A DNA stretch of 64,000 nucleotides from contig JAHFNJ010000001.1 in assembly GCA_023267375.1 (NCBI GenBank), forward strand, positions 85,878-149,877, read 5' to 3'. This document shows, piece after piece, positions 3,559 to 23,808 of the stretch (positions are counted from its first letter, which is position 1; the number at the start of each line of letters is the position of its first letter). This DNA comes from Candidatus Nomurabacteria bacterium. GTDB taxonomy: Bacteria > Patescibacteriota > Minisyncoccia > Phycocordibacterales > UBA9973. Under the pieces are notes generated by a model, which saw nothing but the letters and a program-made list of their open reading frames with translations, ran no database searches and was not told where the DNA came from. Made by a program: the position numbers and the translations under genes.

Positions 3559-3627
3559 ACGCCTAAATAATACCACACGAGTATATTCTATCGAATATAG
3601 ATTATGGGGAAAACAAAAAGATACTCT

Positions 3628-6061: not shown

Positions 6062-6586
6062 ATGGAAAACGCCTCAAACCCTGACAACATAAAGAGAGCC
6101 TTTCTCGAGAGCTACGATTTGTATAGCGATGCTATTTTCCGCTATGCCTACATGAAGACATCCGATCGCAACAAGGCCATCGATATAGCTCAAGATACCT
6201 TTGCGAGGGCTTGGGAATACGCCGCCAAGGGTGAGCCGATCGTCAATATGCGAGCACTCCTCTACAGGATTGCCCACAACCTAATTGTCGATGGTTACCG
6301 GAAAAAGTCCGCGGTGTCTCTCGACCACCTCATGGAAGAAGGTTTCGATTATGGGACAAACAATACCGAACGAATGATGGACCAGCTTGATGGACACGAA
6401 ACAATGAAGTTGCTCGATAAATTGGACCAGAAATATAGGGATGTGGTGATATGGCGATATATCGATGAACTCTCAGTAAAAGAAATAGCGCAAATTACCG
6501 GCGAAACCGAAAACACAGTGTCAGTCCGCATTCATCGAGGACTTGAGAAAATACGAGAATTAGCAAAATTACAAAACAATGGATAA
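6062..6586 (+). CDS. ECF-type RNA polymerase sigma-70 factor
   Basis: Region 2 is recognisable (IAQDTFARAWEY...LYRIAHNLIVDGYRKK) and region 4 has a helix-turn-helix (LSVKEIAQITGETENTVSVRIHRGLEKIRE). Confidence 0.85.
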   Translation: MENASNPDNIKRAFLESYDLYSDAIFRYAYMKTSDRNKAIDIAQDTFARAWEYAAKGEPIVNMRALLYRIAHNLIVDGYRKKSAVSLDHLMEEGFDYGTNNTERMMDQLDGHETMKLLDKLDQKYRDVVIWRYIDELSVKEIAQITGETENTVSVRIHRGLEKIRELAKLQNNG

Positions 6587-9448: not shown

Positions 9449-9475
9449 TTCGTAGTATTTTTATAAATAAATTAT

Positions 9476-11944
9476 TTACTCCAAAATTTTCCGCAGCACA
9501 TCTTCAGGTACTTCTTTCGGTTTCTTTGTTTTGACTGGTGCGGGTGTTTCCTCAGCCTTTTCAGGTTCTGCTTTCAATTCAGCTTGTTTCTTTGCCTGTT
9601 CTGCCGCTTCTTTTTCAATACGTGCCGCATTTTCAGCATACACCCTCCGCTCTTCATCAAGGCGTGCTTTTTCTCTTTTGATTTCTTCTTCCCGCTCTTT
9701 TAATTTTTGAATTGTTTCGGCTTCAACCTTCTTACGCTCCTCTTCTTCTTTTTGGCGACGTAACGCAGACTCTTTCTCATCTCGTTCTTTTTGTGCCTGT
9801 ATTTCCTGCTCACGCTCTTTTTGTACTCGCTCGCGTCGCTCCTTCTCTTCTTTTTCTTCGCGTTCTTTGAGTATGCGCAATTCCGCTTCCTCGCGCTTTT
9901 TTATTTCATCCCCAGTATCTTTGCTTTCAGCAGGGGCTGGTGGCGGAACAGGAACAGATGAAGAAGAAGGTACACTTGTTGGTGCGTTAGCTTTCATCGC
10001 TCGAGCAATAACATCTTTCAATCCAGAAACATGTTCTTCGGATGCTTCTTTTTTGGAAAATTTACTGAGAGCATCATTAACTGGGGCAGGATCTTTTTTG
10101 AGAGCTGCAAGTGACACCGGTTCTGGTTCTTTCTTTGGAATTTCCGCTTGTACTTCCTCTTTCACCTCTTCCTTGGGACGCGTAGAAAACACTACTCCAG
10201 CATTGTTGAGTGCTGCCGTTAATGCATCCTTCAAATTGGTACGATTTGGAAATTCTTTCTTTGGTCGTTCAGCTGCCTGACCACTCATTGGCGGATTCTT
10301 TTTAAATACTTTTGGCGCGCCACTATCAGCAGGAGCTCCGCCTGAATTGAATGTCGGAGCAATGCTTCGCGGGACAAATGGTTTTTTCGGACCAGTTTCT
10401 TGCGCGCCGAATTCAATACCGAGAGCAGAAAGATCTGCCACTGCACGGCGGTCATCACCTCGCCCCTTCATCATGAATCCCTGCGCTGGCTTCAATTCGC
10501 CGTTCTTAATTTTCAACATACAGTCCTTGCAGTAGACAGGTCGGCCAGGAATCGGTTCAAATGGCACCATGGTTGTCTTTCCGCAGTTTGAACATTCTGC
10601 TTTAAACTTTCCTTCCTCAACCAAATCACCTTCCCCGGTAATCGTCATACCACTCCACTTGTTTATTTCTGCCTCGATCACTCCCCGTGGACGTGTATAC
10701 AAATCGCGAGAAGACTGAATAATCTTATCAACCACTTCTTTCGAGTTTTCAACTTTGATCGGCGGTAATGTTGTCGCAGAAAATGGCCGACTCGTTATGC
10801 CATCAACCATCAGTTTCAAATACACATTATAGTTCGGCAGGTTCACAATATCCTGCGGCGTAAATTCCGGCTCAAATTCATTTTCCAAAAATTCTGCGTC
10901 AGCTGCACCGACACGGAAAATAATCATCGTTCCGACGTTACCGAACACGGCGTCGCGGACAATGGTATTTGATTCGGTCACCAACTGCCCGATGTACTGG
11001 TGCGCGAGCGTAAGGTTCAAGCGGTACTTACGAGCTTCCGAAAGAATGTTTGAAAACGAATCTGTTGCAAAGTTCTGGAATTCGTCGACGTACATGTAAA
11101 AGTCCTTACGATCATCTTCTGGGATACGCACACGTTCCATCGCTGCAAGCTGGATTTTCGTAATGAGCATACCTCCCAAAAGTGCAGAGTTATCTTCACC
11201 GATGCGTCCTTTCGATACGTTCACGAGAAAGATTTTTCCCGAGTTCATGATGTCAAAAATATCAATTGTCGATTTTGACTGACCAACCACGTTTCGAATA
11301 AGTGATGTCGACAGGAACTGCCCGACTTTGTTTTGAATCGGAGCGATTGCTTCGTTACGGAACTGATCGCGCCATGCTTCGTATTCATGGATCCAGAATG
11401 CTTTCACCACCGGATCTTTCAAGTTATTCACAATCGTCTGACGAAACTCCTTGTCCACCAGCAAACGCGGAATACCCAAGAGTGTGGAGCCGGGCGTGTC
11501 CAAGAGCGCCAAAATGGCGTTGTTCAAAATATATTCCATTCGGGCACTCCAAGCATTTGCCCAAATCTTAGTGAAGATGCCCATGAGGCCAGACGCCACC
11601 AAGTGCTTGTACTTAGGATCATCAATCTGAATGACGTTGAAACCGATATGGTAGTCCGTATCAGCAGGGTTGAAATACACCACGTCTTTGACGCGATGCG
11701 GCGGAATTGATTCCAAAATGCCTTCAACCAATTCACCGTGCGGGTCGATAACACAGACCCCCTCGCCATTCTGAATGTTCTGGATAATCATGTTGGAAAG
11801 AAGCACCGATTTACCGGTACCTGACTTTCCCAAAACATACATGTGCTGACGGCGGTCTTTTCGCTTTATGCCGAAGAGACGGTCGCTATTTCGGTAATTG
11901 GTTTTGGCAAAATACGTAATATCCTTTTTGGGATCGAGCTGCAT
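9476..11944 (-). CDS. Soluble TraD/VirD4-like (type IV coupling protein-like) P-loop ATPase of the FtsK-HerA superfamily, with a C-terminal zinc ribbon and a charged coiled-coil tail (ATPase-1)
   Basis: Walker A is GKSGTGKS, followed by VIDPHGE. The Walker B/TraG-D_C-like region reads YVDEFQNF...ARKYRLNLTLAHQYIGQL. No N-terminal TM helices. The C-terminus has CSNCGKTT...YCKDCM (CxxC-x18-CxxC), then a ~250 aa Lys/Glu/Arg-rich low-complexity tail. Paralogous to 22348..23808. Confidence 0.7.
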   Translation of the reverse strand: MQLDPKKDITYFAKTNYRNSDRLFGIKRKDRRQHMYVLGKSGTGKSVLLSNMIIQNIQNGEGVCVIDPHGELVEGILESIPPHRVKDVVYFNPADTDYHIGFNVIQIDDPKYKHLVASGLMGIFTKIWANAWSARMEYILNNAILALLDTPGSTLLGIPRLLVDKEFRQTIVNNLKDPVVKAFWIHEYEAWRDQFRNEAIAPIQNKVGQFLSTSLIRNVVGQSKSTIDIFDIMNSGKIFLVNVSKGRIGEDNSALLGGMLITKIQLAAMERVRIPEDDRKDFYMYVDEFQNFATDSFSNILSEARKYRLNLTLAHQYIGQLVTESNTIVRDAVFGNVGTMIIFRVGAADAEFLENEFEPEFTPQDIVNLPNYNVYLKLMVDGITSRPFSATTLPPIKVENSKEVVDKIIQSSRDLYTRPRGVIEAEINKWSGMTITGEGDLVEEGKFKAECSNCGKTTMVPFEPIPGRPVYCKDCMLKIKNGELKPAQGFMMKGRGDDRRAVADLSALGIEFGAQETGPKKPFVPRSIAPTFNSGGAPADSGAPKVFKKNPPMSGQAAERPKKEFPNRTNLKDALTAALNNAGVVFSTRPKEEVKEEVQAEIPKKEPEPVSLAALKKDPAPVNDALSKFSKKEASEEHVSGLKDVIARAMKANAPTSVPSSSSVPVPPPAPAESKDTGDEIKKREEAELRILKEREEKEEKERRERVQKEREQEIQAQKERDEKESALRRQKEEEERKKVEAETIQKLKEREEEIKREKARLDEERRVYAENAARIEKEAAEQAKKQAELKAEPEKAEETPAPVKTKKPKEVPEDVLRKILE

Positions 11945-11983
11945 ATCGATTGTAGTATAGCATCCCCATCAAACGATTTGAAG

Positions 11984-13675
11984 CTACAATAGCTCCTTTT
12001 GGTAACACTCCTCGCAATAAACTGGACGAGGTTCTTTTTCCGTAAAAAAGGTCTCAAATGTATTGGAGCATTGCCCTGTATGATTGTGAGTTCCAGAACG
12101 GCAATCACATTGACGAGAAACGAGGTCATACCCACCTCGCATAGCTTCACGCTCAGCGTGTCGACAAAAGAAACATTCTGTCGGAATAGGAATAGAAAGT
12201 CTCTTATAGAGGAGTAATTCTTCGGGTAGAATCTTATAATTTCTTTGGCACTTTAGACATGCAAGGATTTCTTTCGTAAAAGAATCACTGACTTCATTGA
12301 TTGAATCTGGAACATCTTCTTGTTTAATTGTTTCCCTACCTCTTGTTTCCTGTATTTCATCTTGCCATTTATACCCTGCATTAAGCGCCTCTTCTTTTGA
12401 AAAAAGAAGCTCTTTCTGTGCTTGGGTTTCATTTACCCCGAATGGAGAATACTTTGTTGGGAAAAATTCCCCCCATTCTCCCCGTGATTTCATGTCAGCG
12501 ACAATTGTTTTATAGAGAGCTAGGTATTCTTCTTTTGAATACTTTTTATTAAGAATAGAGTATTCTCCTTTTTTAATACCCACGCAACCTAATAAATACT
12601 GTGAAGAGTGACAATCAAAACAGTATGCAACGTAATTATTTTTCCACGATTCGAGTGTCGCAATACTATGGTATGAATGATCTGGAGTAATACATTCATA
12701 GGAAAGTTCTGTTTCCCCTCCTACTGTACAGTCATAACATGATTTAAAAGTGACGCCATTATAGACATATTTTGAATCTTCCGAAAAAGATGCGAACATG
12801 GCGTTTTTGGTGTTTTTCGAACGAATCATATCAGTCCCAGTACACGAAACACAATTACGGAGTTCTGCGTACTGGCGAGGCTTATCTTGTAAAAATTCCC
12901 CAAACTCTTGCTTTGCTCTTTTATAACCGATTCGCGTATGTAAATTGTATGAAGCTATTATTTTTTCGTATTCCTCTTTTGAGTACTGTTTATTTTGGAA
13001 ATAGTACTTTTTGTTCCGAAGTCCCGATGACATAAAACAATCCTGACACCCGCGACAGTCGTAACAAAAAGCACAATTGATACAGGCGGTACACCAGTAA
13101 ACACTTTTACAATTTGAAACGCCATTTGCCATCGCTCCATCATAGGTATACTGTGATTCCTCTGCTATACCAAAACAGTCGGATAAATCTTTCCCTGCCG
13201 CAAGAGAGACAGAATTAAAAACGTTTTCGAGCTTCCATGCGATAAAAACCATGGCACAATTCTTTGAAAACGCCACATCGTTCGTATACAGACAATTCGT
13301 ACTGGCTATATCATTGTCATTTATTACGCCAAGTGTCGGCGTTCGTCTATATAAATCGATACATTGTTCAATAAAAGAACGCTTTGGATCATACTCCATA
13401 CCATAATCATATGGATTCCAATTATCACTATGAAAACATTTTGGACACAATAACGAAAATGGTGTGTTCGGTGCATAGATAGAAATAAATTTTTTGCTAC
13501 ATAAACTACACTCTCGAGAATAGAGAGTGCAATCATTTCTCCATGAAAGGCGGCGGATTCTGCGACAATGTGAGCAGAGCGTAGGAGCTGGGACTTCCAT
13601 TTTTTCGTAAAACGAAAAATCATCTGGTTCAATGATAAAATCCTTTTTGCAGTTTTGACAGTTGCGGGTTTCCAT
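11984..13675 (-). CDS. Cys-rich multi-zinc-ribbon protein, paralog A of a five-member tandem family (unnamed family)
   Basis: 563 aa. Two N-terminal zinc ribbons (CQNC..CSHC and CSLC..CPKC). A central region has dense CxxC arrays and an internally duplicated LRNKKY..N.QYSKEEY motif. Two C-terminal zinc ribbons. No signal peptide. ATG at 13673-13675, only 4 nt from the stop of paralog B. Confidence 0.75.
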   Translation of the reverse strand: METRNCQNCKKDFIIEPDDFSFYEKMEVPAPTLCSHCRRIRRLSWRNDCTLYSRECSLCSKKFISIYAPNTPFSLLCPKCFHSDNWNPYDYGMEYDPKRSFIEQCIDLYRRTPTLGVINDNDIASTNCLYTNDVAFSKNCAMVFIAWKLENVFNSVSLAAGKDLSDCFGIAEESQYTYDGAMANGVSNCKSVYWCTACINCAFCYDCRGCQDCFMSSGLRNKKYYFQNKQYSKEEYEKIIASYNLHTRIGYKRAKQEFGEFLQDKPRQYAELRNCVSCTGTDMIRSKNTKNAMFASFSEDSKYVYNGVTFKSCYDCTVGGETELSYECITPDHSYHSIATLESWKNNYVAYCFDCHSSQYLLGCVGIKKGEYSILNKKYSKEEYLALYKTIVADMKSRGEWGEFFPTKYSPFGVNETQAQKELLFSKEEALNAGYKWQDEIQETRGRETIKQEDVPDSINEVSDSFTKEILACLKCQRNYKILPEELLLYKRLSIPIPTECFFCRHAEREAMRGGYDLVSRQCDCRSGTHNHTGQCSNTFETFFTEKEPRPVYCEECYQKELL

Positions 13676-13679
13676 AAAA

Positions 13680-15380
13680 TCAAACTATCTCTTGCTGATA
13701 ACAGCTTTCACAATACACAATCTCAGGTCTATTTGGCGCGTAACCCGTTTTCATAGCATTGCCACATTTATCGCAATTGCGATCATAGAGCTTCGGTGGG
13801 TTTGTTCGATCAAAACGCTCCTTCTGTCGACAAGTTGGACACCGAGAAGGTAGAGGCATACTGAGTTTACGCATTAACGAAAGTTCATTGGAAACAACAC
13901 GGAACGCCTTATTGCAACTTTCACAGGCAATCACTTCGTTAACAATTTCATCTTTTGTTCCGGTTATTGTATCTGGAATTTCATCTGCTTTTTTTGTGAT
14001 AGCGTACTGATTGGTTTCTGGCTCAAGCCAATCCATTCCATAGGCTGCAACTTCTTCTTGTGTCTTTGGAAAATAACGATGCGCAACAGTTTCATTGTAT
14101 GCAAATGGCGAAAAATCAAGAGGTAGAAATTCACCATACTTCCACTCCCTTCCTAATGCATCTATATATGGATTCTTCACCATATCTTCGCGAATGTGCG
14201 CAGCCAACTTTTCATATTCTTCCTTTGAATATTCTTTGTTTAAAATACAGTATTCTTTGCGCTTCAAACTCACACAACCAAAAACATTTTTAGACGCAAT
14301 TGTATATATACAATATTCATTATAAAGCGCGTTCGGCCAACTTTGATAACAAAATTTAACGTTATTTGCTCCTTCTCCTACGATCATACATTCATAAATA
14401 AGTTCTGCTCCATTTCCCCAACCTGTGTAATCGTAACAATCTCGTGCTGATGGAACACTAATCCAACCAATGTATCGCGAATCTTCTACTCCTGAAACCA
14501 TATATGCATTCTTTGCATTTTTTGATTCATACACATAATCCCCGGTAACATTTACATTTAAACTGTTACCACTGTATGCACGACGCGGATATGTATCCCA
14601 GAATGCTCGTGCTTTTTGTTTTATTCCATTGAGGGCCGAGCGAGAATCTAAGTTAAACTCTTTCAATTTCTCAAAATATCCTTCGCGAGAATACTGTTCA
14701 TTAAATATGCAGTAACTTTTATTGCGCAAGTTTACACAACCAAAACAATTCACACACCCAGCACAACTTCGAGAAAACCAAGTATCAGTACATGAATCAC
14801 ATTCTTCAGAAAAAAATGTGTTGTAACACTTATTACAACCAACATCTTCATAGCACAGCTCACAATCCTTCATGCGATAACAATCAGCTGAATCTTTGAG
14901 AGTCATAAGATACGATGAATAGAAGGTGTTCTCGCAGTAATCTGCCCAAAACGTCATATAGGTATTTTTCTGATAAGCTACAGCATTTGTGTATTCACTG
15001 TTCTCAAGAGTCAAATAAGCGCTTTCAAGTGCTGGCCATGGGACCGTATCGAGAAATTCCTTCATCTGCGCAAGAAATGGACGAGTTTGGTCATATTCTT
15101 TCGCATATTCAGTACCATCCCAGTCATCAGCCCACCAGCACTTCTGACAGTAAACAATTCGCTTGCGTTGCGGAGAAAAAACACTAAGCATGTTTTTTTT
15201 TCCACACTTGGCACAATCCCGTTTGTAAAGACTCCAGACATCGTTAAATGAAAGACGTCTGATTAGGCGGCATTCTGGGCACCATGTTGGTGGAGGAACT
15301 TTTATCTTCTCGTAAAAACCAAAATCATCTGGTTCTATCGTAAAATCTTTTTTACAGTTTTGGCAGTTTTTAGTTTCCAT
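13680..15380 (-). CDS. Cys-rich multi-zinc-ribbon protein, paralog B
   Basis: The ORF as given starts at a TTG (15407). The ATG at 15378-15380 gives METKNCQNCKKDF, which aligns with the N-termini of the other paralogs and lies 2 nt after the stop of paralog C. Same architecture as A. Confidence 0.75.
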   Translation of the reverse strand: METKNCQNCKKDFTIEPDDFGFYEKIKVPPPTWCPECRLIRRLSFNDVWSLYKRDCAKCGKKNMLSVFSPQRKRIVYCQKCWWADDWDGTEYAKEYDQTRPFLAQMKEFLDTVPWPALESAYLTLENSEYTNAVAYQKNTYMTFWADYCENTFYSSYLMTLKDSADCYRMKDCELCYEDVGCNKCYNTFFSEECDSCTDTWFSRSCAGCVNCFGCVNLRNKSYCIFNEQYSREGYFEKLKEFNLDSRSALNGIKQKARAFWDTYPRRAYSGNSLNVNVTGDYVYESKNAKNAYMVSGVEDSRYIGWISVPSARDCYDYTGWGNGAELIYECMIVGEGANNVKFCYQSWPNALYNEYCIYTIASKNVFGCVSLKRKEYCILNKEYSKEEYEKLAAHIREDMVKNPYIDALGREWKYGEFLPLDFSPFAYNETVAHRYFPKTQEEVAAYGMDWLEPETNQYAITKKADEIPDTITGTKDEIVNEVIACESCNKAFRVVSNELSLMRKLSMPLPSRCPTCRQKERFDRTNPPKLYDRNCDKCGNAMKTGYAPNRPEIVYCESCYQQEIV

Positions 15381-15382
15381 AA

Positions 15383-17080
15383 TTAAACAATTTCTTTTGT
15401 ATAACAATCCTTACAATAAACGATCGGTTTATTCTTGAGTAATTTAGAGACAGGTGTGGTTTTACCACATTGCACACATTGGCAGGTAGTCATTTTTGAT
15501 TCATCAAGCCACATATCGAGCTTTTCTCCTATGCGACAAAAAGGACACGCTCGTGGAAGCGGAAAGTGTCGGCCACGAAGAAAATCAAGTTCTGCTCTCA
15601 CAATCTTAAACCCTTTTTTACATAAAGTACACTGAATCACCTCTTTTAGAATCGTCTCGTCCACATCTTTGATATTGTCGGGCAAATCTTCGCTTCTTTT
15701 AGTAATTGCATGCTCAGTCGGTGTTTTCTCTTGCCAGTTATAACCATAGCTTACTGCATCACTCTCAGTCATTGGAAATACTCGCTGGGCCACTGTGGCA
15801 TTGTATGTCCAAGGACTTAGTGCTATTGGGAAAAATTCACCATAACGATAGACGTTGCCCCGCTTATCGGTATATGGCATGTCATTCATCTGTTGAATAA
15901 TTTTTCCACGAAGTGCATAAAATTCTTCTTTAGAGTACGGCTTATTAAAAATCGTGTACTCTCCTTTTTTTACACTCACGCACCCGAAAAATCCTCTCCC
16001 ACCAATAGTAAGAAATGAGTACTCCATGTCACTCCCCCCGATTGCACTTAATACACTCCATTTTATATTTTGAGCATTTTCACCTATAGTGAGAGAATCA
16101 TAAGAAAGTTCAGCACCTCCCCACCCAGTAATATCATATGAATCCTTCGTGTCATGTAAAAAATGAAGATACCTACCATCTTGGCACGTAACCAACTCAA
16201 AAGAATCTTTGCAATTTTTTGATTCAAAGATCATGTTCCCTGTGCAGCCAACAGACATGTCATCATAGTAGGCTTTTTGTGGAAACGAATCCCAATGTTT
16301 TTCCGTTTCCTTTTTTATTCCTTGATACTGTGCATACGACCCAAAATCGATCTGATCCAATCTATTAGAATATTCTTCTTTGGAAAGAGGTTCATTAAAA
16401 TAGTGGTATTTTTTATTTCTCAAATTCGCCGACCCAAAACAATTTTGGCAATTAGCGCAATTGCGCAAGAAATGGCAATTCATTGATTCAGTCACTTGAT
16501 TCCGCAACCCGACTCCACCGCTCACTTTAAAGATATGCATTGAGTCATAGCATCGATCGGAGCTCATAACGAGTGACGAATCAAGCATGGTGTTACTATG
16601 CATAATATAAACACCATAGGATGCATCCTCAGTCCAGTCGGTATTAAAAACCAAATAACAATTCTTAAGCGAACCAGTGTAGTTTGTATAGGGAGATGTC
16701 GCAATCACATTCTGCTCAATCGCAAGTGCAAGATGCGGGACTTCGTGCATAAGCTCATCAAACTGCTCAAAAAATGACCGAGAAAAATCGTAGTCGCGAG
16801 CATACGAAAGCGGGTCCCAACCATCGCCCCACCAACACGTCGGGCAATATACTGTATAGTTTGCTTCGAGTGGATACATAGAAATAGTATCTTTCTTACA
16901 TAAATCACAGGGACGTTTGTAGAGCGTTACTAAATTAAAAAAAGCGAGCCGACGCTGCAATCGACACTCTGCACAAAAGGTCGGCGGAGGTACTTTCATT
17001 TTTTCGTAAAAAGAAAAATCATCAGGTTCGATAGTAAACTGATTCTTACAATTCTGACAATTTTTTGTTTCTGAATTCAT
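15383..17080 (-). CDS. Cys-rich multi-zinc-ribbon protein, paralog C
   Basis: 565 aa, N-terminus MNSETKNCQNCKNQFTIEPDDFSFYEKMKVPPPTFCAECR. Shared WW.D.WDP and GEFFP motifs. Both copies of the LRNKKY..N...SKEEY motif are present, as are the C-terminal zinc ribbons. Confidence 0.75.
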   Translation of the reverse strand: MNSETKNCQNCKNQFTIEPDDFSFYEKMKVPPPTFCAECRLQRRLAFFNLVTLYKRPCDLCKKDTISMYPLEANYTVYCPTCWWGDGWDPLSYARDYDFSRSFFEQFDELMHEVPHLALAIEQNVIATSPYTNYTGSLKNCYLVFNTDWTEDASYGVYIMHSNTMLDSSLVMSSDRCYDSMHIFKVSGGVGLRNQVTESMNCHFLRNCANCQNCFGSANLRNKKYHYFNEPLSKEEYSNRLDQIDFGSYAQYQGIKKETEKHWDSFPQKAYYDDMSVGCTGNMIFESKNCKDSFELVTCQDGRYLHFLHDTKDSYDITGWGGAELSYDSLTIGENAQNIKWSVLSAIGGSDMEYSFLTIGGRGFFGCVSVKKGEYTIFNKPYSKEEFYALRGKIIQQMNDMPYTDKRGNVYRYGEFFPIALSPWTYNATVAQRVFPMTESDAVSYGYNWQEKTPTEHAITKRSEDLPDNIKDVDETILKEVIQCTLCKKGFKIVRAELDFLRGRHFPLPRACPFCRIGEKLDMWLDESKMTTCQCVQCGKTTPVSKLLKNKPIVYCKDCYTKEIV

Positions 17081-17141
17081 TTTATATAAAAAGAAACCAT
17101 GAGCGAGATGTGGCTCGCTTTAGCATTTTAAAATCGAATAC

Positions 17142-17447
17142 TCACCGCATCGTCTCAACCATCCATTCTTTATAGCTGTGATTCAATCGACGAATATCAA
17201 CTCCAGCTACAAGCGGTACACTATATGTATGATTTTGGGAAATAATGGTCTCAACTTCCTGCAATTTCGATTCGAGTGTCGTAATCAAAAGAATCGCTTG
17301 CAAATGATCTTTCATTACTCCTTCATACATATATATCGATTCGACAGGCCAAAAATCAACACAGGCCCCCACTTTTCGCGAGATGATGAGTGATCCCAAT
17401 TTTTTCGCTTCGGCTGTGGTTTCGCATGTTGTATAGACAAATACCAT
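17142..17447 (-). CDS. cutA: CutA1-like divalent-cation tolerance protein
   Basis: 101 aa. The motif GACVDFWPVESIYMYEGV...LLITTLES...HTYSVPLVAGVDI...YKEWMVE fits the CutA fold signature. It is followed on the minus strand by the hairpin GAGCGAG-ATGTGG-CTCGCT. Confidence 0.65.
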   Translation of the reverse strand: MVFVYTTCETTAEAKKLGSLIISRKVGACVDFWPVESIYMYEGVMKDHLQAILLITTLESKLQEVETIISQNHTYSVPLVAGVDIRRLNHSYKEWMVETMR

Positions 17448-17580
17448 AGAAATAGAGCCTTTTGGGCTTAATTAGCTTTCGACCTTTACGCTTTCATTAT
17501 ACACCTCAAAAAGCTAATCAATTTGATTGACGAAAGAAGCAAATACTGTATAATTTTTCAAAAATCAAAACTATACTGAA

Positions 17581-18024
17581 ATGAAGAAACTACTGCTCAT
17601 TCTGATGGTTGTCCTGACACAAACAGTGTACGCACAACCCAAAACTACACCTTCCCTTCCTGATGAAGATTACCGTCGCCCACCAATGTCACTCAAAGAA
17701 AAACATGTGTTGGCTATCAAAAACTACATTCCTGACCCGTGCCAGGAATCGTATGTAGTAAACAATAGTACAATTTATCGTTATCGTGATGTAAATAAAA
17801 ATGTGATCTTGTTGTTTCTTCCCAAAGATACAACCGTCGGCTTTGCGGTAGCCACCCACGACACGCTCGGCAATCACATGTTTATTCCATTTACAATCGA
17901 TAAAAAAATGTTCTTCTGGTATCTCGAAGAAAACGATAAAATAACATCGGAAGAAAACCTTGATGCACTGATGGAAGAAATTATTGTTATCTTATGGAAC
18001 AAGGACAAAAAGGCAAGGATGTAG
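17581..18024 (+). CDS. Small secreted protein (147 aa), hypothetical
   Basis: Signal peptide MKKLLLILMVVLTQTVYAQ. No known domain. It is the only plus-strand gene inside the paralog array. Confidence 0.55.
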   Translation: MKKLLLILMVVLTQTVYAQPKTTPSLPDEDYRRPPMSLKEKHVLAIKNYIPDPCQESYVVNNSTIYRYRDVNKNVILLFLPKDTTVGFAVATHDTLGNHMFIPFTIDKKMFFWYLEENDKITSEENLDALMEEIIVILWNKDKKARM

Positions 18025-18034
18025 GAATGTAATC

Positions 18035-18071
18035 TTTAAAGGGATGTTCGCTTTGCGAACATCCCTTTAAA
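18035..18071. terminator. Bidirectional rho-independent terminator
   Basis: TTTAAAGGGATGTTCGC-TTTGC-GAACATCCCTTTAAA: a perfect 14-bp stem between the convergent genes 17581..18024 (+) and paralog D (-). Confidence 0.7.
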
Positions 18072-18097
18072 TTTTAATATTAGCCACTAGACATTTC

Positions 18098-19837
18098 TCA
18101 TATAACTTCCTTTTGGTAGCAACTTTCACAATAAACTTTTTCCGGTCGCTCTGGCGCATAGCTTGTTTCAAATTCATTTGAACACTTACCGGAATGCTCA
18201 TGACTTCCCTCTTCGCACATACATGAACGATGCCAGAGTTTTAGCGGATTACGCAAACGGAGGCGTTTATAGTGTCGGCAATTGGGGCAGTGTCGAGGGG
18301 CAGCAATTGAATTCTTTTTTAAAAACAACAACTCTTCACTGGTTATTCGATATGCCCCCGTACACTGTGTAAGTTCACTTCCCCCTCCAAGACAAGCGAT
18401 GGTCTCATTTAAAATAGAGTTCTCCAGCTCATTTATATGATCTGGCAATTCACTCGCTTGTTTTGTAATTTTATAATCTTTATGTTCTGGTTTTCGAAAT
18501 AAGTATCCTTGAGCCTGTATTTCTTCTTCTTTTTTTGGAAAATATTCTTGGGCAATTGTTTCATTGTAGGCAAATGGCGAAATTTCACTCGGAAAAAATT
18601 CTCCGTATCGATACACCTGCCCCTTTGCATCAAGATACGGTACTGCTCGCATATGCTCTATAATTTTTGGTACCAATGTTTCGTATTCTTCCTTAGTATA
18701 TTGTTTATTCAAAATACAATACTCTTTTTTTCTCAAACCAATACATCCAAAAAGATTTTTAGAGTTGTAACACATGTAAGTATAACGAGTATTAAAAGAA
18801 CTATGTGTCAAAACGGCAAAATACTGATTTGCAGCTTTAATACCCGAATCAATTCCTTCATAGAGAAGCGTCGCCCCTCCACCACAACCATAACCGTCAT
18901 ATCCTTCTTTCAGGTCGATGACATGGGAAATATATTTTGAATCTTCAACTTCTCCGAAAACATCAAAACAGTATTTAACATTTTTTGAATTTCCGATATT
19001 GTCACCAGTTGCATTAACCGATTTGCCGATATTGCCATACTTATGTGGAAACTTTAGTACAAAATCGGAGTATTTTTCTTCAAAATTGGAGAGCGCTTTG
19101 TAACTTCCAAAATCTAAGGATTTTTTTTGATCCATGTATTCTTCTTTAGTGTACTGAGTATTGTAGATGCAATATTGTTTATTGCGAAGATTAATACAGC
19201 CGATACAATCTCGAAGATTTTTAGAGTGTTGCAGAAAAAAAGAATTGATTGATTCATCTGTGTTATATGAATAATGGGTCTGATAAAGGCCAGTACAAAT
19301 AACATCATTGGAGCTTTGCTCAGATTTTTCAACCGTGTCTATATCCATGCAATCTTTAAGTTCAACAGCACCACGAGAGTATGCCACTCTTTCATTGTTA
19401 AACGAGGCAAATGTTAAATAGCAATCTTTGCAATCAGCATTATGGTTGCCATAAGGAGAATTGACGACATTTGTATTTCCTAAATTTGCCAGAGGTACGA
19501 GAGAAAGCAACTTTTGAAATTGCTCAAAAAATGGTCGGGAAAAATCATATTCTTGACCAAACTCTATTGGATCCCATTCATCGCTCCACCAAATATCTCG
19601 ATCGTAGACTACTACCGGCGCCTCGGGGTGGAACATGGTTATCACCTGTTTGCCAGTTTTCGCACAGGTGCGTTTAAAGAGAGACCGTTCATTGCGCCAT
19701 GTTAGGCGACGAATCATTCTACATTCCGGACAAAATGTCGGTGGCGGCACTTTAATTTTCGTATAAAAATCAAAGTCTTCAGGTTCTATTGTGAAGTCTT
19801 GTTTGCAGTTTTGGCAGGTTTTTGTTTGAGAGTTCAT
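18098..19837 (-). CDS. Cys-rich multi-zinc-ribbon protein, paralog D
   Basis: 579 aa, N-terminus MNSQTKTCQNCKQDFTIEPEDFDFYTKIKVPPPTFCPECR. Both ..LRNKQYCIYNTQYTKEEY motifs are present. The C-terminus, CMCEEGSHEHSGKCSNEFETSYAPERPEKVYCESCYQKEVI, resembles that of paralog A. The stop of paralog E is 3 nt upstream. Confidence 0.75.
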   Translation of the reverse strand: MNSQTKTCQNCKQDFTIEPEDFDFYTKIKVPPPTFCPECRMIRRLTWRNERSLFKRTCAKTGKQVITMFHPEAPVVVYDRDIWWSDEWDPIEFGQEYDFSRPFFEQFQKLLSLVPLANLGNTNVVNSPYGNHNADCKDCYLTFASFNNERVAYSRGAVELKDCMDIDTVEKSEQSSNDVICTGLYQTHYSYNTDESINSFFLQHSKNLRDCIGCINLRNKQYCIYNTQYTKEEYMDQKKSLDFGSYKALSNFEEKYSDFVLKFPHKYGNIGKSVNATGDNIGNSKNVKYCFDVFGEVEDSKYISHVIDLKEGYDGYGCGGGATLLYEGIDSGIKAANQYFAVLTHSSFNTRYTYMCYNSKNLFGCIGLRKKEYCILNKQYTKEEYETLVPKIIEHMRAVPYLDAKGQVYRYGEFFPSEISPFAYNETIAQEYFPKKEEEIQAQGYLFRKPEHKDYKITKQASELPDHINELENSILNETIACLGGGSELTQCTGAYRITSEELLFLKKNSIAAPRHCPNCRHYKRLRLRNPLKLWHRSCMCEEGSHEHSGKCSNEFETSYAPERPEKVYCESCYQKEVI

Positions 19838-19840
19838 ACA

Positions 19841-21490
19841 CTAAGAAATTTCTCGTTGGTAGCAATCAATACAGGCGATCTTCTGATAGCCCCATGATTT
19901 TGGATAGTATGCCACCACCTCCTTCGCACAGTACGTGCAGCTATACTGTTCCCCTTTAGTTTGACTCATCGGCAACAATCGCTCTTTCGTTCGCACATCA
20001 AAGTGTACTCGCGGTAACGCGATATTTTTCCGCCTTAAAAATTGCAATTCTGTCTCTGCAATATTGTATCTCCAACCAGTAACCGGACAGATAAGCGCCT
20101 GTTTTGGAAGTGATGGATCAGCATTGGTGACTAAATCAGGAAGTTCTGACGTAGGAATACCTTCTACTTTTTTACCCTCACCCTCTTCCCAATACCCTCC
20201 GCGTTCAGCTATATACTCTTTTGTTACCTCAGGGAAATAGACAGCTGCAGTTGAAAGATTGTACGGACACAATCCGAGTGAGTATGGCGGAAACTTTCCA
20301 TACTCTCCTCGTACTTTCATATCTGCAATTATTTTTTCTTTCAAAGCTTCATATTCTTCCTTTGTATATTCTTTATTCAAAATACTGTATTTTTTCTTTC
20401 GTAGTCCGACACATCCAAAACAGTAATCCACTTCCAAGCATTGGTCACAGTATTCACTATAACGAGCACCATCACACCAAATGGAATATTTAAGCTGATA
20501 CCCATTGGTACAACAGCTATTATTTCCAGAATTTTCTAGCGTCCAGCAACCAGTCAGATCGATTGCGTCTTTTGTCTTTAACCCACGAAGACAGTTGGTA
20601 CAATTTTCTGATTCTTCCCAGCAAAAAACATTTGTACAGTTATTACAATTAGACATGTACGTACCCGTAGAATTTGTAGTTTTAATATTAAAGTTCTCTC
20701 GATGAACTGCATTTGATTTCAGAAGTTCAGCATATTGTTTTTTATATTTCTCCAATTGAACATGGGAACCCAAGTTAATTCCCTTCATTTTTTCTTCATA
20801 CTCTTCTTTAGTGTATTGTATATTTTCAATGCAGTATGACTTTCCTCTCAGATTCCAGCTCATAAAACAGTGCTGGCAGTTACGACAATCAAATAAAAAT
20901 GCACTTTCTATGCAATCTCTACAGTTCCTTGAAAAAAGAAGGCTATAGGAATTGAAACAGTACCCACAGTCATAGCATTGATCGAGCGTAAATACATGCG
21001 AAATGTCCGCTGAGTCTTTGCAATCCATGGCACGATAGCCATAGAGAAGATTCTCTGATCTTGCTATCGAACGAGAAAGGTAGCAATTTTTGGAATCCCA
21101 GGCATCATCAGCCCATTCACAGCCGACACTATTAGTCCCCATTTGATGGGGACGTGGCACTTTCTCTTGCAGTTCTTTGAGTTGCTCAAAAAACGGTCGA
21201 CTGGAATCATAGTCTTGTCCGTAGCTCATTGGATCCCAGGCATCACTCCACCATTCTTTGGCAGTATAGATAGGATAACGTGGATTTTCTGGCAATACTG
21301 TAATAAATTTTTCCCCAGAAAGACTAGAGGTACCTGCACGGAATTTACCAAACGGCCAGAAGGCAAAATGGTGTTTCCAACGACATGGAACACAGATATC
21401 AGGAACTTCAATCCCGACTTTTTCGTACATGCCACTCTCTCTGTCAGTTATATCAAATCCTACCTTACAATAGGCGCAGGTCTTTTGCAT
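19841..21490 (-). CDS. Cys-rich multi-zinc-ribbon protein, paralog E (most divergent, partly degenerate)
   Basis: 549 aa. N-terminus MQKTCAYCKVGFDITDRESGMYEKVGIEVPDICVPCR. It keeps WWSDAWDP, SRPFFEQ, both LRGKSYCIENIQYTKEEY / LRKKKYSILNKEYTKEEY motifs and the final zinc ribbon (CTYC..CIDC). It lacks the second N-terminal ribbon and the first C-terminal ribbon. Confidence 0.7.
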   Translation of the reverse strand: MQKTCAYCKVGFDITDRESGMYEKVGIEVPDICVPCRWKHHFAFWPFGKFRAGTSSLSGEKFITVLPENPRYPIYTAKEWWSDAWDPMSYGQDYDSSRPFFEQLKELQEKVPRPHQMGTNSVGCEWADDAWDSKNCYLSRSIARSENLLYGYRAMDCKDSADISHVFTLDQCYDCGYCFNSYSLLFSRNCRDCIESAFLFDCRNCQHCFMSWNLRGKSYCIENIQYTKEEYEEKMKGINLGSHVQLEKYKKQYAELLKSNAVHRENFNIKTTNSTGTYMSNCNNCTNVFCWEESENCTNCLRGLKTKDAIDLTGCWTLENSGNNSCCTNGYQLKYSIWCDGARYSEYCDQCLEVDYCFGCVGLRKKKYSILNKEYTKEEYEALKEKIIADMKVRGEYGKFPPYSLGLCPYNLSTAAVYFPEVTKEYIAERGGYWEEGEGKKVEGIPTSELPDLVTNADPSLPKQALICPVTGWRYNIAETELQFLRRKNIALPRVHFDVRTKERLLPMSQTKGEQYSCTYCAKEVVAYYPKSWGYQKIACIDCYQREIS

Positions 21491-21495
21491 AGCGA

Positions 21496-21542
21496 AATTG
21501 TAGCAGTTTTGAGCTAGGGAACAAAGGTCATATAATGCATTT
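21496..21542. promoter_or_regulatory. Divergent promoter region with -10-like boxes 7 nt from both start codons (leaderless-type)
   Basis: TATAAT at 21531-21536 sits 7 nt before the dapF ATG. On the opposite strand, TACAAT sits 7 nt before the paralog E ATG. The whole intergenic region is only 52 nt. Confidence 0.35.
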
Positions 21543-22346
21543 ATGCTTACCTTCTATAAATACCACGGGGCTGGAAATGACTTCGTTGTCATAGACAACC
21601 GAGATCTTTCATTTGATAGGGCCGACAGCAAGCTAGTCCAACAGATCTGCCACCGTCGATTTGGTATTGGCGCAGATGGAATGCTCCTCCTTCAAAATCA
21701 CCCTGAATATGATTTTGAAATGATTTATATCAACTCTGATGGCTCCTACGGCGCAATGTGCGGCAACGGAGGACGATGTATCGTTTCTTTTGCTGAGAAG
21801 CTGGGAATTATCAAAAATCCAAAAGAAATAAAATTCCTGGCAGCCGACGGCCTACACGAAGCGGAACTTTTAGAAAATAACATGGTACGCCTAAAGATGG
21901 CGGATGTTTCAGCTATTAGTGAACGTAACGGTCTTCCCTTCCTCTATTCAGGAACAACCCCGCACCACATTCAGCAAGTCGTAAACCTAGAAACATTTCC
22001 TGTGGTCGCCGAAGCACAGAAGGTACGTGAGAAAAATGGTGACGCTCATGGCGTAAACGTAAACTATGTCGAGAAAAAGGGAGATATTTTTCATGTCCGA
22101 ACCTATGAGCGCGGAGTGGAAGATGAAACACTTGCCTGTGGCACGGGCGCAACATCAGTAGCTATTTATCTCGCAAACCAAAATATGCTGGGAGGTAATA
22201 CTGCGACTATTAAGATGCCTGGCGGAACACTCGAGGTCAGTTTTCAAAAAGAAAATGACGGCACCTATAAAAATATATGGCTTCTCGGACCAGCATCATT
22301 TGTTCTCAAAGGAGAATGGAACAATGAAAATACGTATGTAGTATAA
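21543..22346 (+). CDS. dapF: Diaminopimelate epimerase
   Basis: GNDFVV near the N-terminus. Catalytic cysteines in MCGNGGRC and ACGTGATS. Confidence 0.85.
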   Translation: MLTFYKYHGAGNDFVVIDNRDLSFDRADSKLVQQICHRRFGIGADGMLLLQNHPEYDFEMIYINSDGSYGAMCGNGGRCIVSFAEKLGIIKNPKEIKFLAADGLHEAELLENNMVRLKMADVSAISERNGLPFLYSGTTPHHIQQVVNLETFPVVAEAQKVREKNGDAHGVNVNYVEKKGDIFHVRTYERGVEDETLACGTGATSVAIYLANQNMLGGNTATIKMPGGTLEVSFQKENDGTYKNIWLLGPASFVLKGEWNNENTYVV

Positions 22347-22347
22347 G

Positions 22348-23808
22348 TTAGATTAACGGCTCAGCGTTTTCTTCTACTTTCACTTCTGCTTTTACTTCTC
22401 CGCGTCCTTTACCAGTAATCGCGGCCTTTTCTTGGGCGCTGCGGATAATGGTGGATTCTTCCTCTTCAATAAGTTTTCTCGCCATGTCCATCGGAATGGA
22501 ATATTTTTTACGAGAAGCTTCAACAATGCGCTCACGGTACGATGGATGCGGTGGCGGTAATACTTTCAATGTTTCAGCAGAAAACGGATCGTACGATTCC
22601 CCATCGATTGTCATCTTGATAAAAAATTCGCCGATACCCAAGTTGATCATATCTTTTACATCGAATACTGGCGCAAATTCAGGCTTCAATTTTACGGCAT
22701 CGTCACCACCCACGCGGAAGGAAATGATCGAACCGACGTTACCGAGCACCGCCGCCTGCACCTTTGGAAGCAATTGACCGACGTATTGATGTGCCACGGT
22801 CAGATTCAATCCATACTTACGCGCCTCAGAGAGAATGTTTTCAAATGTATCAGTCACGATGTTTTGAAACTCGTCTACGTAAATATAAAAATCATCACGC
22901 TTGTCATGAGCAATTTTGGCGCGCGCCATTCCAGCTTGTTTGATTTTCGTGACAAACATCGAACCAAAGAAGCTTGAATTTTCTTCACCGATCTTTCCTT
23001 TTGAAAGGTTGATGAAAATGAGTTTCTTCGAATTCATAAGCTTTTCAATATCAATTTTGTTTTCTTTCTGTCCGAAGATGTTGCGAAGCATTGGGTCAGA
23101 GAGAAATTGTCCAAGTTTGTTCACAAGCGGAATGATCGCGTCCGTATCAAATTTTTCAGACCAGTCAGCAAATTCGATTGCCCAAAAGCGCTTCACCATA
23201 TCGTCTTCGATATATTCCACCACCTTTTGACGGTAGTTACGATCAGTCAACATCGAAATCATGCCGCGCATGGTAGCGTGCGGATAGTCGAGGAGTGCGA
23301 GCACAGTAAAACGAAATACGTGCTCAAGACGCGGCGTCCAGTTCGCACCGAATTGCTTTTCCATCACTTCAATGAGACCTTGGGTCAATTGGTGTTTGAA
23401 TGTTGGATCAACGTTTGCAAGCGGGTTGAATGACACTGGATATTCATAGTCAGATGGATCAATGATACAGACGTCATCAATACGCTCCTCGGGAACGAAC
23501 GCAAGAATATCTTCAATCGCTTCACCGTGCGGATCGACAAGGCAGAGTCCATGACCATACGCGATGTCTTGGCGAATCATGAGTTCCAATAGTTTTGACT
23601 TACCAACACCAGACTTACCGATGATATAGAGGTGACGACGGCGATCAACACGCTTTATGCCGAAGATAAATTTCTTTTCTTCGAGCGCTGCAACGTAGTT
23701 TGTACGTCCAATAAACGAAATTTCCTCAGGTCGAACCTGCCCATGAATCGGTAGTTCTGGTGGCGGAGACGCGTATTTGATTATTTGGATTTTATTGGCT
23801 CGAGCCAT
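22348..23808 (-). CDS. Soluble TraD/VirD4-like P-loop ATPase of the FtsK-HerA superfamily (ATPase-2), paralog of 9476..11944
   Basis: Walker A GKSGVGKS, then LVDPHGEA. Walker B/TraG-D_C-like region YVDEFQNI...ARKYGLNLTVAHQYVGQL. It aligns along its length with the N-terminal 480 aa of ATPase-1 and lacks the zinc-ribbon/charged tail. Its ATG overlaps the TAA of the upstream ABC exporter (TAATG). Confidence 0.7.
   Translation of the reverse strand: MARANKIQIIKYASPPPELPIHGQVRPEEISFIGRTNYVAALEEKKFIFGIKRVDRRRHLYIIGKSGVGKSKLLELMIRQDIAYGHGLCLVDPHGEAIEDILAFVPEERIDDVCIIDPSDYEYPVSFNPLANVDPTFKHQLTQGLIEVMEKQFGANWTPRLEHVFRFTVLALLDYPHATMRGMISMLTDRNYRQKVVEYIEDDMVKRFWAIEFADWSEKFDTDAIIPLVNKLGQFLSDPMLRNIFGQKENKIDIEKLMNSKKLIFINLSKGKIGEENSSFFGSMFVTKIKQAGMARAKIAHDKRDDFYIYVDEFQNIVTDTFENILSEARKYGLNLTVAHQYVGQLLPKVQAAVLGNVGSIISFRVGGDDAVKLKPEFAPVFDVKDMINLGIGEFFIKMTIDGESYDPFSAETLKVLPPPHPSYRERIVEASRKKYSIPMDMARKLIEEEESTIIRSAQEKAAITGKGRGEVKAEVKVEENAEPLI

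Follow-up and report, generated by a model that had tools for sequence, protein, structure and literature searches.

What might a pair of coupling-protein-like ATPases be doing around an array of cysteine-rich proteins in the core chromosome of a Patescibacterium? The question is raised by a stretch of 64,000 nucleotides (the window) from Candidatus Nomurabacteria bacterium (GCA_023267375.1, contig JAHFNJ010000001.1, positions 85,878 to 149,877 of the forward strand). An earlier note, made from the sequence alone, had seen two paralogous soluble TraD/VirD4-like ATPases bracketing five Cys-rich paralogs, and had proposed an undescribed translocation or nucleic-acid-handling system. Our preferred answer, held tentatively and with somewhat less than even confidence, is that the ATPases are a ring motor independent of any type IV secretion system (T4SS), derived from a conjugative DNA pump and acting on a polymer, probably DNA, with the Cys-rich zinc-ribbon proteins as adaptors or clients. 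A fuller version, which we offer more tentatively still, is a previously unrecognised, housekeeping-grade, Patescibacteria-specific machine, in which two T4SS-independent, coupling-protein-derived ring motors and old paralogous zinc-ribbon adaptors direct the movement or processing of DNA or another polymer at the envelope, with a lamin-tail-domain (LTD) surface protein outside in some lineages.

The two ATPases do bracket the five paralogs and are themselves paralogous. ATPase-1 (9476-11944, minus strand, 822 amino acids (aa)) and ATPase-2 (22348-23808, minus strand, 486 aa, a TrwB/VirD4-fold P-loop ATPase with no extra domains) share 194 of 432 aligned residues (45%; BLASTP, E 2e-132), and the part of ATPase-1 paralogous to ATPase-2 is its core (aa 1-430, 10655-11944), which is 73% identical to the Nomurabacteria ortholog at locus L001. 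The Walker A, DPHGE and Walker B/ARKY..LNLT.AHQY blocks quoted in the earlier note can be read in both proteins: GKSGTGKS at aa 39-46 (nucleotides (nt) 11807-11830), VIDPHGE and YVDEFQN...ARKYRLNLTLAHQYIGQL in ATPase-1 (Walker B at aa 286-291), and GKSGVGKS at aa 64-71 (nt 23596-23619), VDPHGE and YVDEFQN...ARKYGLNLTVAHQYVGQL in ATPase-2 (Walker B at aa 310-316). The assignment to the TraD/VirD4/TrwB type is borne out by Pfam profiles, as ATPase-1 matches TrwB_AAD_bind (6e-11, 42.3 bits against a cut-off of 20.5) and TraG-D_C (25.9 bits, cut-off 22), ATPase-2 matches T4SS-DNA_transf (28.5 bits, cut-off 20.1) and TrwB_AAD_bind (23.7 bits, cut-off 20.5), and both exceed the cut-off of 23.2 for DUF87, the HerA central domain (33.6 and 27.2 bits). 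Searched against the PDB, a profile of the family finds TrwB (4e-7) and DotL (3e-4). The AlphaFold2 (AF2) model of ATPase-2 (pLDDT 87) contains a helical block at aa 135-245, and its top nine Foldseek matches in the PDB are all TrwB (E 1e-13; TM-score 0.56-0.66, up to 0.68 normalised by target; alignments of 409-466 columns, ~415-430 spanning helices 135-245), followed by HerA (E 5e-13 to 1e-9), DotL and Cag-beta. Since the best match is TrwB and includes the helical insertion, the predicted fold is that of a type IV coupling protein (T4CP).

The pair is set apart from canonical T4CPs by its scores, its topology and its genomic linkage. The named TraD/VirD4 families of NCBIfam fall far below their cut-offs (SXT_TraD 35.8-47.7 bits against 366; conju_CD1115 53.5 against 250), neither protein has a transmembrane segment (maximum 19-residue Kyte-Doolittle hydropathy 1.2-1.3, with 2.6 for the adjacent ATP-binding cassette (ABC) exporter and 2.0 for the LTD signal peptide as reference values), and neither is linked to a relaxase or VirB4. 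On the combined sequence and model evidence we file them as proteins likely to work like a T4CP-class ring ATPase, not as members of the conjugative coupling-protein family. With TrwB of R388, VirD4 and TraD they have in common the FtsK/HerA-superfamily P-loop domain and its inserted all-alpha domain, and TrwB is the best PDB match by both profile and fold, but identity to it is ~14-15% and the N-terminal transmembrane domain is missing. Unlike these proteins, the window pair is core-chromosomal with no relaxase or mating-pair genes nearby, is fixed as two paralogs per genome, is extremely conserved, and carries a zinc ribbon on one paralog. HerA translocases (HerA-NurA, HerA-Sir2, HerA-DUF4297) provide the second-best fold and the DUF87 match, but the pair has the T4CP-type all-alpha insertion and a lower TM-score to HerA than to TrwB, no partner nuclease or Sir2-type effector family was found among the window open reading frames (ORFs) scanned, and the PADLOC HerA models match short stretches only. 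Two further candidates were rejected. For a known PADLOC defence system, the ATPases gave only a mad8 match (E 3e-12) and the short HerA matches, with no partner genes; for an FtsK/SpoIIIE DNA translocase, neither ATPase matched FtsK_SpoIIIE in Pfam at E<=0.01, and there is no membrane domain. FtsK has been reported in at least Saccharibacteria, which bears on the idea of the ATPases as its replacement.

A zinc ribbon connects ATPase-1 with the Cys-rich proteins. It lies at aa 447-478 (10511-10606), has the form CxxC-x17-CxxC, and matches PF23477 (1.1e-13, 51.1 bits, cut-off 27) and TIGR04272 (3e-15, 55.6 bits, cut-off 36), the same domain family as the C-terminal ribbon of the Cys-rich proteins. 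Among full-length ATPase-1 orthologs every one of 50 has this ribbon, against none of 80 ATPase-2 orthologs. The earlier note had described a CxxC-x18-CxxC ribbon at the end of ATPase-1 with a ~250-aa Lys/Glu/Arg-rich (K/E/R-rich) tail; the spacing is x17, the position is mid-protein, and the tail that follows (aa 479-822, 9476-10510) is 344 aa long, with only the last ~150 aa K/E/R-rich and helix-prone in this genome. The tail begins with a short motif, GE[IL]KP...LxxLGIEF, kept in 12 of the 14 orthologs inspected (it is absent in L072), then enters a low-complexity stretch of variable length; the remaining tail cannot be aligned, and ortholog lengths range from 542 to 866 aa. Zinc binding has been demonstrated for two small Methanosarcina proteins of this CxxC-x17-CxxC domain family (PMC12704099). 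The Methanosarcina TIGR04272/PF23477 proteins are small, stand-alone and archaeal, whereas here the ribbon forms part of a ring ATPase and of beta-solenoid proteins.

The five Cys-rich genes all lie on the minus strand: paralog A (11984-13675, 563 aa, 38 Cys; family hidden Markov model (HMM) E 6e-197), B (13680-15380; 6.5e-242), C (15383-17080, 565 aa), D (18098-19837, 579 aa; 8e-244) and E (19841-21490, 549 aa; 1.9e-189). They are 30-41% identical to paralog C, with E the most divergent (30%). For paralog B, the ORF extends to a TTG at 15407, and homologs begin at the ATG at 15380 (METKNCQNC). The family has 4,500 homologs at E<=1e-5, with a length of ~567 aa. Among the 120 homologs listed, most are named "hypothetical", others bear the generic Joint Genome Institute (JGI) name "Zn ribbon nucleic-acid-binding protein", only two have a precomputed Pfam match, and the few that name an organism come from Patescibacteria or from an unclassified 'bacterium' or metagenome. 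This partner family of thousands of members has no Pfam family of its own and no informative name. Alignment and the AF2 model of paralog C (pLDDT 81, pTM 0.82) indicate an N-terminal CxxC-x24-CxxCR ribbon and CxxC-x17-CxxC ribbon, with the same pair repeated at the C-terminus; in paralog C the paired ribbons occupy aa 1-95 and 481-565 and a beta-solenoid ~126-380. Between the solenoid and the C-terminal ribbons, a further region, Mid2, is highly conserved (motif YGEFFP..SPFxYNET), as is the C-terminus (...CYQ(Q/K)EV(Y/V)), and paralog A matches all four sub-domain HMMs (ZnR-N, solenoid, Mid2 and ZnR-C). The proteins have 23-47 cysteines and no signal peptide. Against PF23477 (cut-off 27), paralog B scores above the cut-off (37.3 bits; 2.1e-9 over two stretches), A (17.7) and C (19.5) fall below it, and D and E do not match; on TIGR04272 paralog B reaches 30.2 bits, under the cut-off of 36. 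Beyond this ribbon, Pfam and NCBIfam recognise nothing in the family, a PDB profile search returns only LIM/CRP zinc fingers (E>0.007), BFVD only ribbon-sized matches, PHROGs only a weak match to phrog_15341 (2e-4), and PADLOC none.

How far the genes belong together was judged from the best-scoring 80 loci of each scan. The first set holds one genome per species, with 80 ATPase-2 orthologs at 66-85% identity, and L001 brings it to 81 loci. Locus titles include Paceibacterota/Paceibacteria, Nomura-, Staskawicz- and Nealsonbacteria, Parcubacteria and Minisyncoccia, many read only 'Patescibacteria group', 'bacterium' or 'uncultured bacterium', and ~20 third party annotation (TPA) entries are titled 'uncultured Candidatus Saccharibacteria'; gene calls at all loci are simple ORF calls. 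In 64 of these 81 Paceibacteria loci the ATPase-2 ortholog has a Cys-rich gene within 10 kb, and all 155 copies are on the ATPase-2 strand, with one to eight Cys-rich genes in a co-directional module; 52 ATPase-1-type ORFs occur across the loci. The earlier note had named as refuting its proposal that homologs should never be found beside the Cys-rich family or the LTD and ABC genes; for the Cys-rich family these counts show the opposite. CutA, a divalent-cation protein family, is found in 21 of the 81, on the same strand and at a median of 213 nt from ATPase-2. At 45% identity the Cys-rich copies form ~24 clusters, nearly all with one copy per locus, and the five window paralogs fall into five different clusters, each common to 6-24 other loci (A with 6, D with 24, and E with 12, at one copy per locus). 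The paralogs are thus old and individually retained. The search for ATPases from the Cys-rich gene outward found them within 10 kb in two of three cases. A Liptonbacteria locus runs SecDF-HARE-DUF8128-ATPase-2 and then seven Cys-rich genes; the Niyogibacteria locus L090 has ATPase-1 followed by an LTD gene, with three Cys-rich genes 5 kb off among glycosyltransferase, epimerase and cytidylyltransferase genes; and a Giovannonibacteria copy stands alone. Some 8 kb from the Cys-rich genes of L090, bAvd and reverse-transcriptase genes resemble a diversity-generating retroelement (L090:19311-20677).

Three flank contexts surround the module. The first is GrpE-(Cys)-PaaX<-DnaK-ATPase-1-Cys(n)-(RsmE<)-ATPase-2-DnaJ. 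The second is SecD-SecF-[sigma-70 region 4/HARE-HTH]-[460-aa membrane protein]-[~170-aa membrane protein]-ATPase-2-(CutA)-Cys(n)-ATPase-1. The third, that of the window, is NRAMP<-ATPase-2-CutA-nucleotidyltransferase-Cys(n)-ATPase-1-LTD. Constant across all three, in either order, are ATPase-2, the Cys-rich genes and ATPase-1, often with CutA. Immediate neighbours were counted over 162 loci. DnaJ lies directly downstream of ATPase-2 in 37 cases and DnaK directly upstream of ATPase-1 in 14; in one clade (L001, L027, L030 and ~35 others) the module is inserted in the chaperone operon between dnaK and dnaJ, and an extra Cys-rich gene stands between grpE and dnaK. An NRAMP-like metal transporter, identified by reading its sequence only, recurs in 9 loci. 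The small membrane protein of the second context (~160-190 aa) lies between DUF8128 and ATPase-2 in 19 loci (e.g., L076:2317-2886, L091:5740-6213) and has a C-terminal soluble domain whose R-N-x-x-x-H motif (HKLRNKIAHE) resembles the HEPN/DUF4145 signature; it has no Pfam match.

These counts redraw the block that the earlier note had taken as one coherent gene set (7988-25616, from the LTD surface protein to the ABC exporter). The coherent set is ATPase-2 with the Cys-rich genes and ATPase-1 (and CutA), not the whole block. The MsbA-like ABC exporter (23808-25616, minus; ABC_tran and ABC_membrane matches) overlaps the start of ATPase-2 with its stop as TAATG, as had been stated, and the two are translationally coupled here; it is directly upstream of ATPase-2 in 1 of 94 cases, which is this window, and occurs elsewhere on either strand in 12 of the 81 loci. 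The dapF gene (21543-22346, plus) recurs beside the module in no other locus of the neighbour counts. The LTD gene (7988-9448, minus; Pfam LTD 7e-27 over two stretches, PKD 4e-7), which follows ATPase-1 after the 27 nt given previously, encodes a signal peptide, an LTD, a PKD domain, a second LTD and a C-terminal membrane anchor, and is directly downstream of ATPase-1 in 11 loci besides its occurrence in L090. The LTD protein is a facultative partner, the ABC exporter is not a conserved partner, and dapF is unrelated. The gene list of the block had also left out a CutA1-family gene inside the array (17142-17447, minus; Pfam CutA1 8.5e-23) and an opposite-strand ORF at 17581-18024. Intergenic gaps measure 2-39 nt all the way from paralog C to the LTD gene.

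The ATPases are both widespread and tightly constrained. At E<=1e-10, ATPase-2 finds 7,998 homologs or more; its 120 best cluster representatives all match it at 79-100% identity, and the named ones among them are DUF87 or "T4SS DNA-binding domain" proteins of Pacebacteria, Nomurabacteria and Patescibacteria. An exhaustive search returned 21,385 clusters (50% identity) at E<=1e-3 and 5,540 at E<=1e-30. Orthologs are 66-89% identical (66-85% at the 80 genome loci, 88-89% in the closest protein cluster, P0002). Over the same 351 pairs of genomes, median identity is 85.7% for ATPase-2, 82.3% for DnaK, 66% for DnaJ and 57% for CysRS, and ATPase-1, with its variable tail included, is 70-72% identical over the same pairs. 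Judged by these identities, ATPase-2 is under purifying selection of Hsp70 grade. Neither the remnant of a mobile element nor a defence gene nor an effector chaperone would be expected to be constrained at the level of DnaK.

A 2025 survey counted 5,713 VirD4-like homologs in 2,918 of 3,035 Patescibacteria genomes (~96%), about two in each, and VirB4 in 2,417 genomes (PMC12102498). According to the same survey, only 148 of the 5,713 lie near virB4, T4CP genes are often away from virB4, Patescibacteria T4SSs lack relaxases, and the homolog of S. epibionticum is not essential although the T4SS genes there are; its authors state that exaptation of the VirD4-like homologs cannot be excluded (PMC12102498). 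The ATPases themselves are thus already published as uncharacterised "T4CP homologues", so that the claim of an undescribed system stands for the coherent set, which annotation leaves unexplained and which lies outside the canonical T4SS, and not for the ATPases on their own. The earlier note had also weighed generic conjugative-element remnants with a relaxase and T4SS nearby. As it had reported, VirB4, VirB6, VirB8-11, relaxase and pilin families find no match among the window ORFs scanned; integrase Pfam families find none either, and the small fraction of homologs near virB4 agrees with this. In the literature searched we found no description of the pairing of these ATPases with a zinc-ribbon/beta-solenoid family, of the split DUF8128 relationship described below, or of Hsp70-grade constraint; searches on DUF8128, on the Cys-rich family and on zinc ribbons with coupling proteins in the candidate phyla radiation (CPR) returned nothing, and a Paceibacteria metatranscriptome paper makes no mention of the module genes. 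Patescibacteria form a large share of bacterial diversity and keep few genes in minimal genomes, and ~96% of them retain about two VirD4-like ATPases without linkage to a T4SS. On the role of these ATPases the window offers a concrete handle: an operon-like module, a partner family, a common ribbon that hints at how the parts connect, and Hsp70-level constraint on one of the two.

More distant relatives indicate where the ATPases may have come from. Many of the 150 best representatives are 700-1,200 aa long, and their ATPase part begins only at residue ~250-450, after a membrane helix and a domain of ~330 aa annotated as DUF8128. In the second flank context, the 460-aa membrane protein that directly precedes ATPase-2 as a gene of its own is homologous to the N-terminus of one such fused protein, P0257 (BLASTP 1e-33), and the fused form is known for both ATPase-1-like and ATPase-2-like proteins. 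The DUF8128-T4CP fusions (P0257, P0266 and the integrative-element P0291) belong to the same ATPase family as the window proteins, whose ATPase domain is 37-53% identical to them (47-53% for the fusions against which family membership was judged), and in many Paceibacteria DUF8128 is a separate gene directly upstream of the ATPase-2 ortholog; they differ in that no DUF8128 gene lies within the 64 kb, though this genome could encode one elsewhere. The absence of an N-terminal transmembrane segment, which the earlier note had given as a distinguishing feature, therefore holds for the two window ATPases and not for the family, and on the sequences compared the soluble ATPase is best read as a derived state, not a family property.

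A second, diverse set of 80 metagenome loci, at 34-51% identity to a fused member, shows the wider context. DUF8128 is present in some form in 54 of them (a fused copy in 18 and a split copy in 37, one locus having both), a sigma-70 region 4/HARE-HTH gene in 36, SecDF in 23, an ATPase with a C-terminal ribbon in 17 and the Cys-rich family in 18. The order SecD-SecF-[sigma-70 region 4 + HARE-HTH]-DUF8128-ATPase recurs in L009, L014, L091, L105, L117 and many of L092-L171, whether DUF8128 is split or fused, SecDF being convergent where it is fused. In this order we seem to see the broader core that the ATPase family conserves, and none of DUF8128, HARE-HTH and SecDF is found anywhere in the 64-kb window. 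In one distant lineage the Cys-rich protein itself comes in two parts, the ribbon pair (~105-112 aa) and the solenoid (~301-306 aa) being separate genes that adjoin a fused DUF8128-ATPase, and in L082 the ribbon gene overlaps the ATPase stop codon.

Other relatives sit on mobile DNA. At L084:6663-14444 and L085, which are not Patescibacteria, a 1,227-aa DUF8128-T4CP stands with an integrase, an HTH_17 excisionase-like gene, a 234-aa gene and Replic_Relax, and the contig also encodes an Omp85-like protein (weak Pfam hit) and, nearby, a second TrwB-like ATPase; the ATPase family may here form the basis of a minimal integrative element, mobilisable or conjugative. P0291, the fusion from outside Patescibacteria, belongs to such mobile DNA, with the integrase, the excisionase-like HTH gene and Replic_Relax beside it, whereas the window copies are housekeeping-like. 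Plasmid homologs occur in Sulfitobacter, Streptomyces, Bacillus, Sulfolobus and haloarchaea, the closest being that of Sulfitobacter (36% identity), in a transposase-rich context. Phage relatives (21-28% identity) occur in large Bacillus myoviruses (Bacillus phage G gp156, SPO1-like) and in a small cyanophage (Microcystis phage Mwe-JY31), and the match to phrog_5156 has an E of 3e-59.

The reading we prefer, a T4SS-independent motor, would run as follows. The ATPase pair would descend from a conjugative DNA pump that became fixed in the chromosome and now serves a housekeeping role; DNA ancestry is suggested by the relative beside integrase, HTH_17 and Replic_Relax and by the plasmid homologs. 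As a hexameric ring, the motor would spend ATP on moving or remodelling a polymer, most probably DNA, at the membrane or close to it. The Cys-rich proteins, as zinc-ribbon adaptors or clients, would attach to the ATPases, or to a ligand that they have in common with them, by way of the ribbon also found in ATPase-1, and with five old paralogs there would be five specificities. Where there is an LTD surface protein, it would act as a partner outside the cell. Independence from the T4SS is argued by the small number of homologs near virB4, by the presence of the ATPases in more genomes than VirB4, and by their being non-essential in S. epibionticum. If that independence holds, the module would be a clear case of a mobile-element DNA pump turned core cellular function, and would bear on how epibionts acquire or handle macromolecules.

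A number of observations weigh against this reading. The coupling-protein fold also serves protein-only secretion (DotL, Cag-beta), so that the fold does not identify the substrate, and a zinc ribbon is as likely to bind protein as nucleic acid. Overall the Cys-rich proteins are slightly acidic (pI ~6), with only the C-terminal ribbon pair basic. With no DUF8128 partner in the 64 kb, membrane association in this organism is unsupported by gene content, and the HARE-HTH gene, absent from the window, may simply encode a transcriptional regulator. In 62 of the 80 diverse loci there is no Cys-rich neighbour, which confines the adaptor idea to some lineages. The loci are phylogenetically related, so that independent observations are far fewer than the locus counts, and the ATPase-1 and ATPase-2 labels in distant lineages derive from HMMs built on Paceibacteria.

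A rather unlikely account, though the strongest of the alternatives, is that these are genuine coupling proteins that recruit cargo and pass it to the channel of a Patescibacteria T4SS, its virB4, virB6 and pilin genes being elsewhere in the genome, with the Cys-rich proteins as translocated effectors or as DotN-like zinc adaptors on the ATPase tail. It explains the T4CP fold and the Pfam families directly, and the distance between T4CP genes and virB4 together with the lack of relaxases makes protein cargo plausible (PMC12102498). The long C-terminal extension of ATPase-1 with its conserved short motif resembles that of substrate-binding T4CPs, and the strictly conserved CYQQEV(Y/V) C-terminus of the paralogs could be a secretion signal. 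In Legionella, the T4CP DotL has a long C-terminal extension that binds small adaptors, among them DotN, a zinc-binding protein and thus a model for an adaptor of this kind. Both the profile and the fold matches of the ATPase family include DotL, but the Cys-rich proteins, at ~567 aa, are large and built around a beta-solenoid, occur in up to eight copies and are accompanied by no Dot/Icm channel genes; no sequence similarity of theirs to DotN was seen, no search having been aimed at it. The rarity of virB4 linkage and the excess of genomes with the ATPases over those with VirB4 speak against T4SS coupling, as does a homolog that is dispensable where the T4SS is essential. The Cys-rich paralogs are old, mostly single-copy and of constant length, unlike fast-evolving effectors, four or more structural zinc sites would impede unfolding for export, and conservation of ATPase-2 at Hsp70 grade is atypical for T4CPs.

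It is improbable that the ATPases act on the Cys-rich proteins themselves, unfolding them, loading them with metal or assembling them into filaments or a scaffold together with the DnaK system. Such a protein-handling device would suit the large clade that has the module inside a GrpE-DnaK-DnaJ operon, as well as the recurrence of CutA and of the NRAMP-like transporter beside it. The DnaK/DnaJ context is, however, one synteny type of related genomes, absent from the window and from the other two types, and ATPases of the same family occur without a Cys-rich neighbour in most of the diverse loci. We know of no FtsK/HerA/T4CP-class ring ATPase that serves as a general protein assembly factor.

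Quite unlikely, too, is the absence of any functional module, with inherited synteny in small, slowly rearranging genomes holding together genes of unrelated processes. Long syntenic blocks are found in Patescibacteria, SecDF, CysRS and ribosomal proteins recur at the same loci, and one Cys-rich gene (L089) has no ATPase within 10 kb. Set against this, the core outlives at least three flank contexts and both gene orders, strand concordance is 100% and the gaps in the window are short (2-40 nt), the link recurs in a lineage whose Cys-rich protein is made by two genes right at the ATPase stop codon, and a domain is common to ATPase-1 and the Cys-rich family.

It is very improbable that the genes are what is left of a decaying conjugative element, or that they form an anti-phage defence system around a HerA/T4CP-like ATPase. 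Distant relatives do occur in plasmids, integrative elements and large phages, PADLOC gives weak mad8 and HerA matches, and defence islands often contain paralog arrays. Against this, the two ORFs are intact, motifs included, conservation is of Hsp70 grade, the ATPases are in ~96% of Patescibacteria genomes, the setting is core chromosome, the window ORFs scanned include no integrase, relaxase, nuclease or Sir2-type effector, and the Cys-rich family has no PADLOC match.

The rest of the 64 kb is core chromosome, with RpoB/C, RpoD, DnaG, UvrA/B/C, MreB/C, Ddl, TGT, ribosomal protein S2, EF-Ts and tRNA genes. A promoter and terminator scan of the block gave counts at chance level (43 vs 43.3; 17 vs 14.6), and its sole standout signals are those around the plus-strand ORF at 17581-18024, inside the Cys-rich array. 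This 147-aa ORF has a signal-peptide-like N-terminus (MKKLLLILMVVLTQTVYAQ), is preceded by a near-consensus promoter-like site (TTGACG-16-TATAAT at 17527-17554), and is followed by a palindromic terminator with a 17-bp stem (18035-18071) that could also end the paralog E-D transcript; it has no Pfam, NCBIfam or PHROG match and no homolog in 81 related loci. An extracytoplasmic function (ECF)-type sigma factor and a DUF5667 protein (6062-7904, plus) are convergent to the LTD gene, and a 1,185-aa protein at 19-3576 (minus) has Laminin_G_3, GLUG and peptidoglycan-binding domains, which together suggest a cell-surface theme on the LTD side of the module. At 60143-60700 (minus), a 185-aa protein gives a match to the TIMP domain (tissue inhibitor of metalloproteinase; Pfam E 1.2e-9, 38.7 bits, cut-off 23.1), which is unusual for a bacterium.

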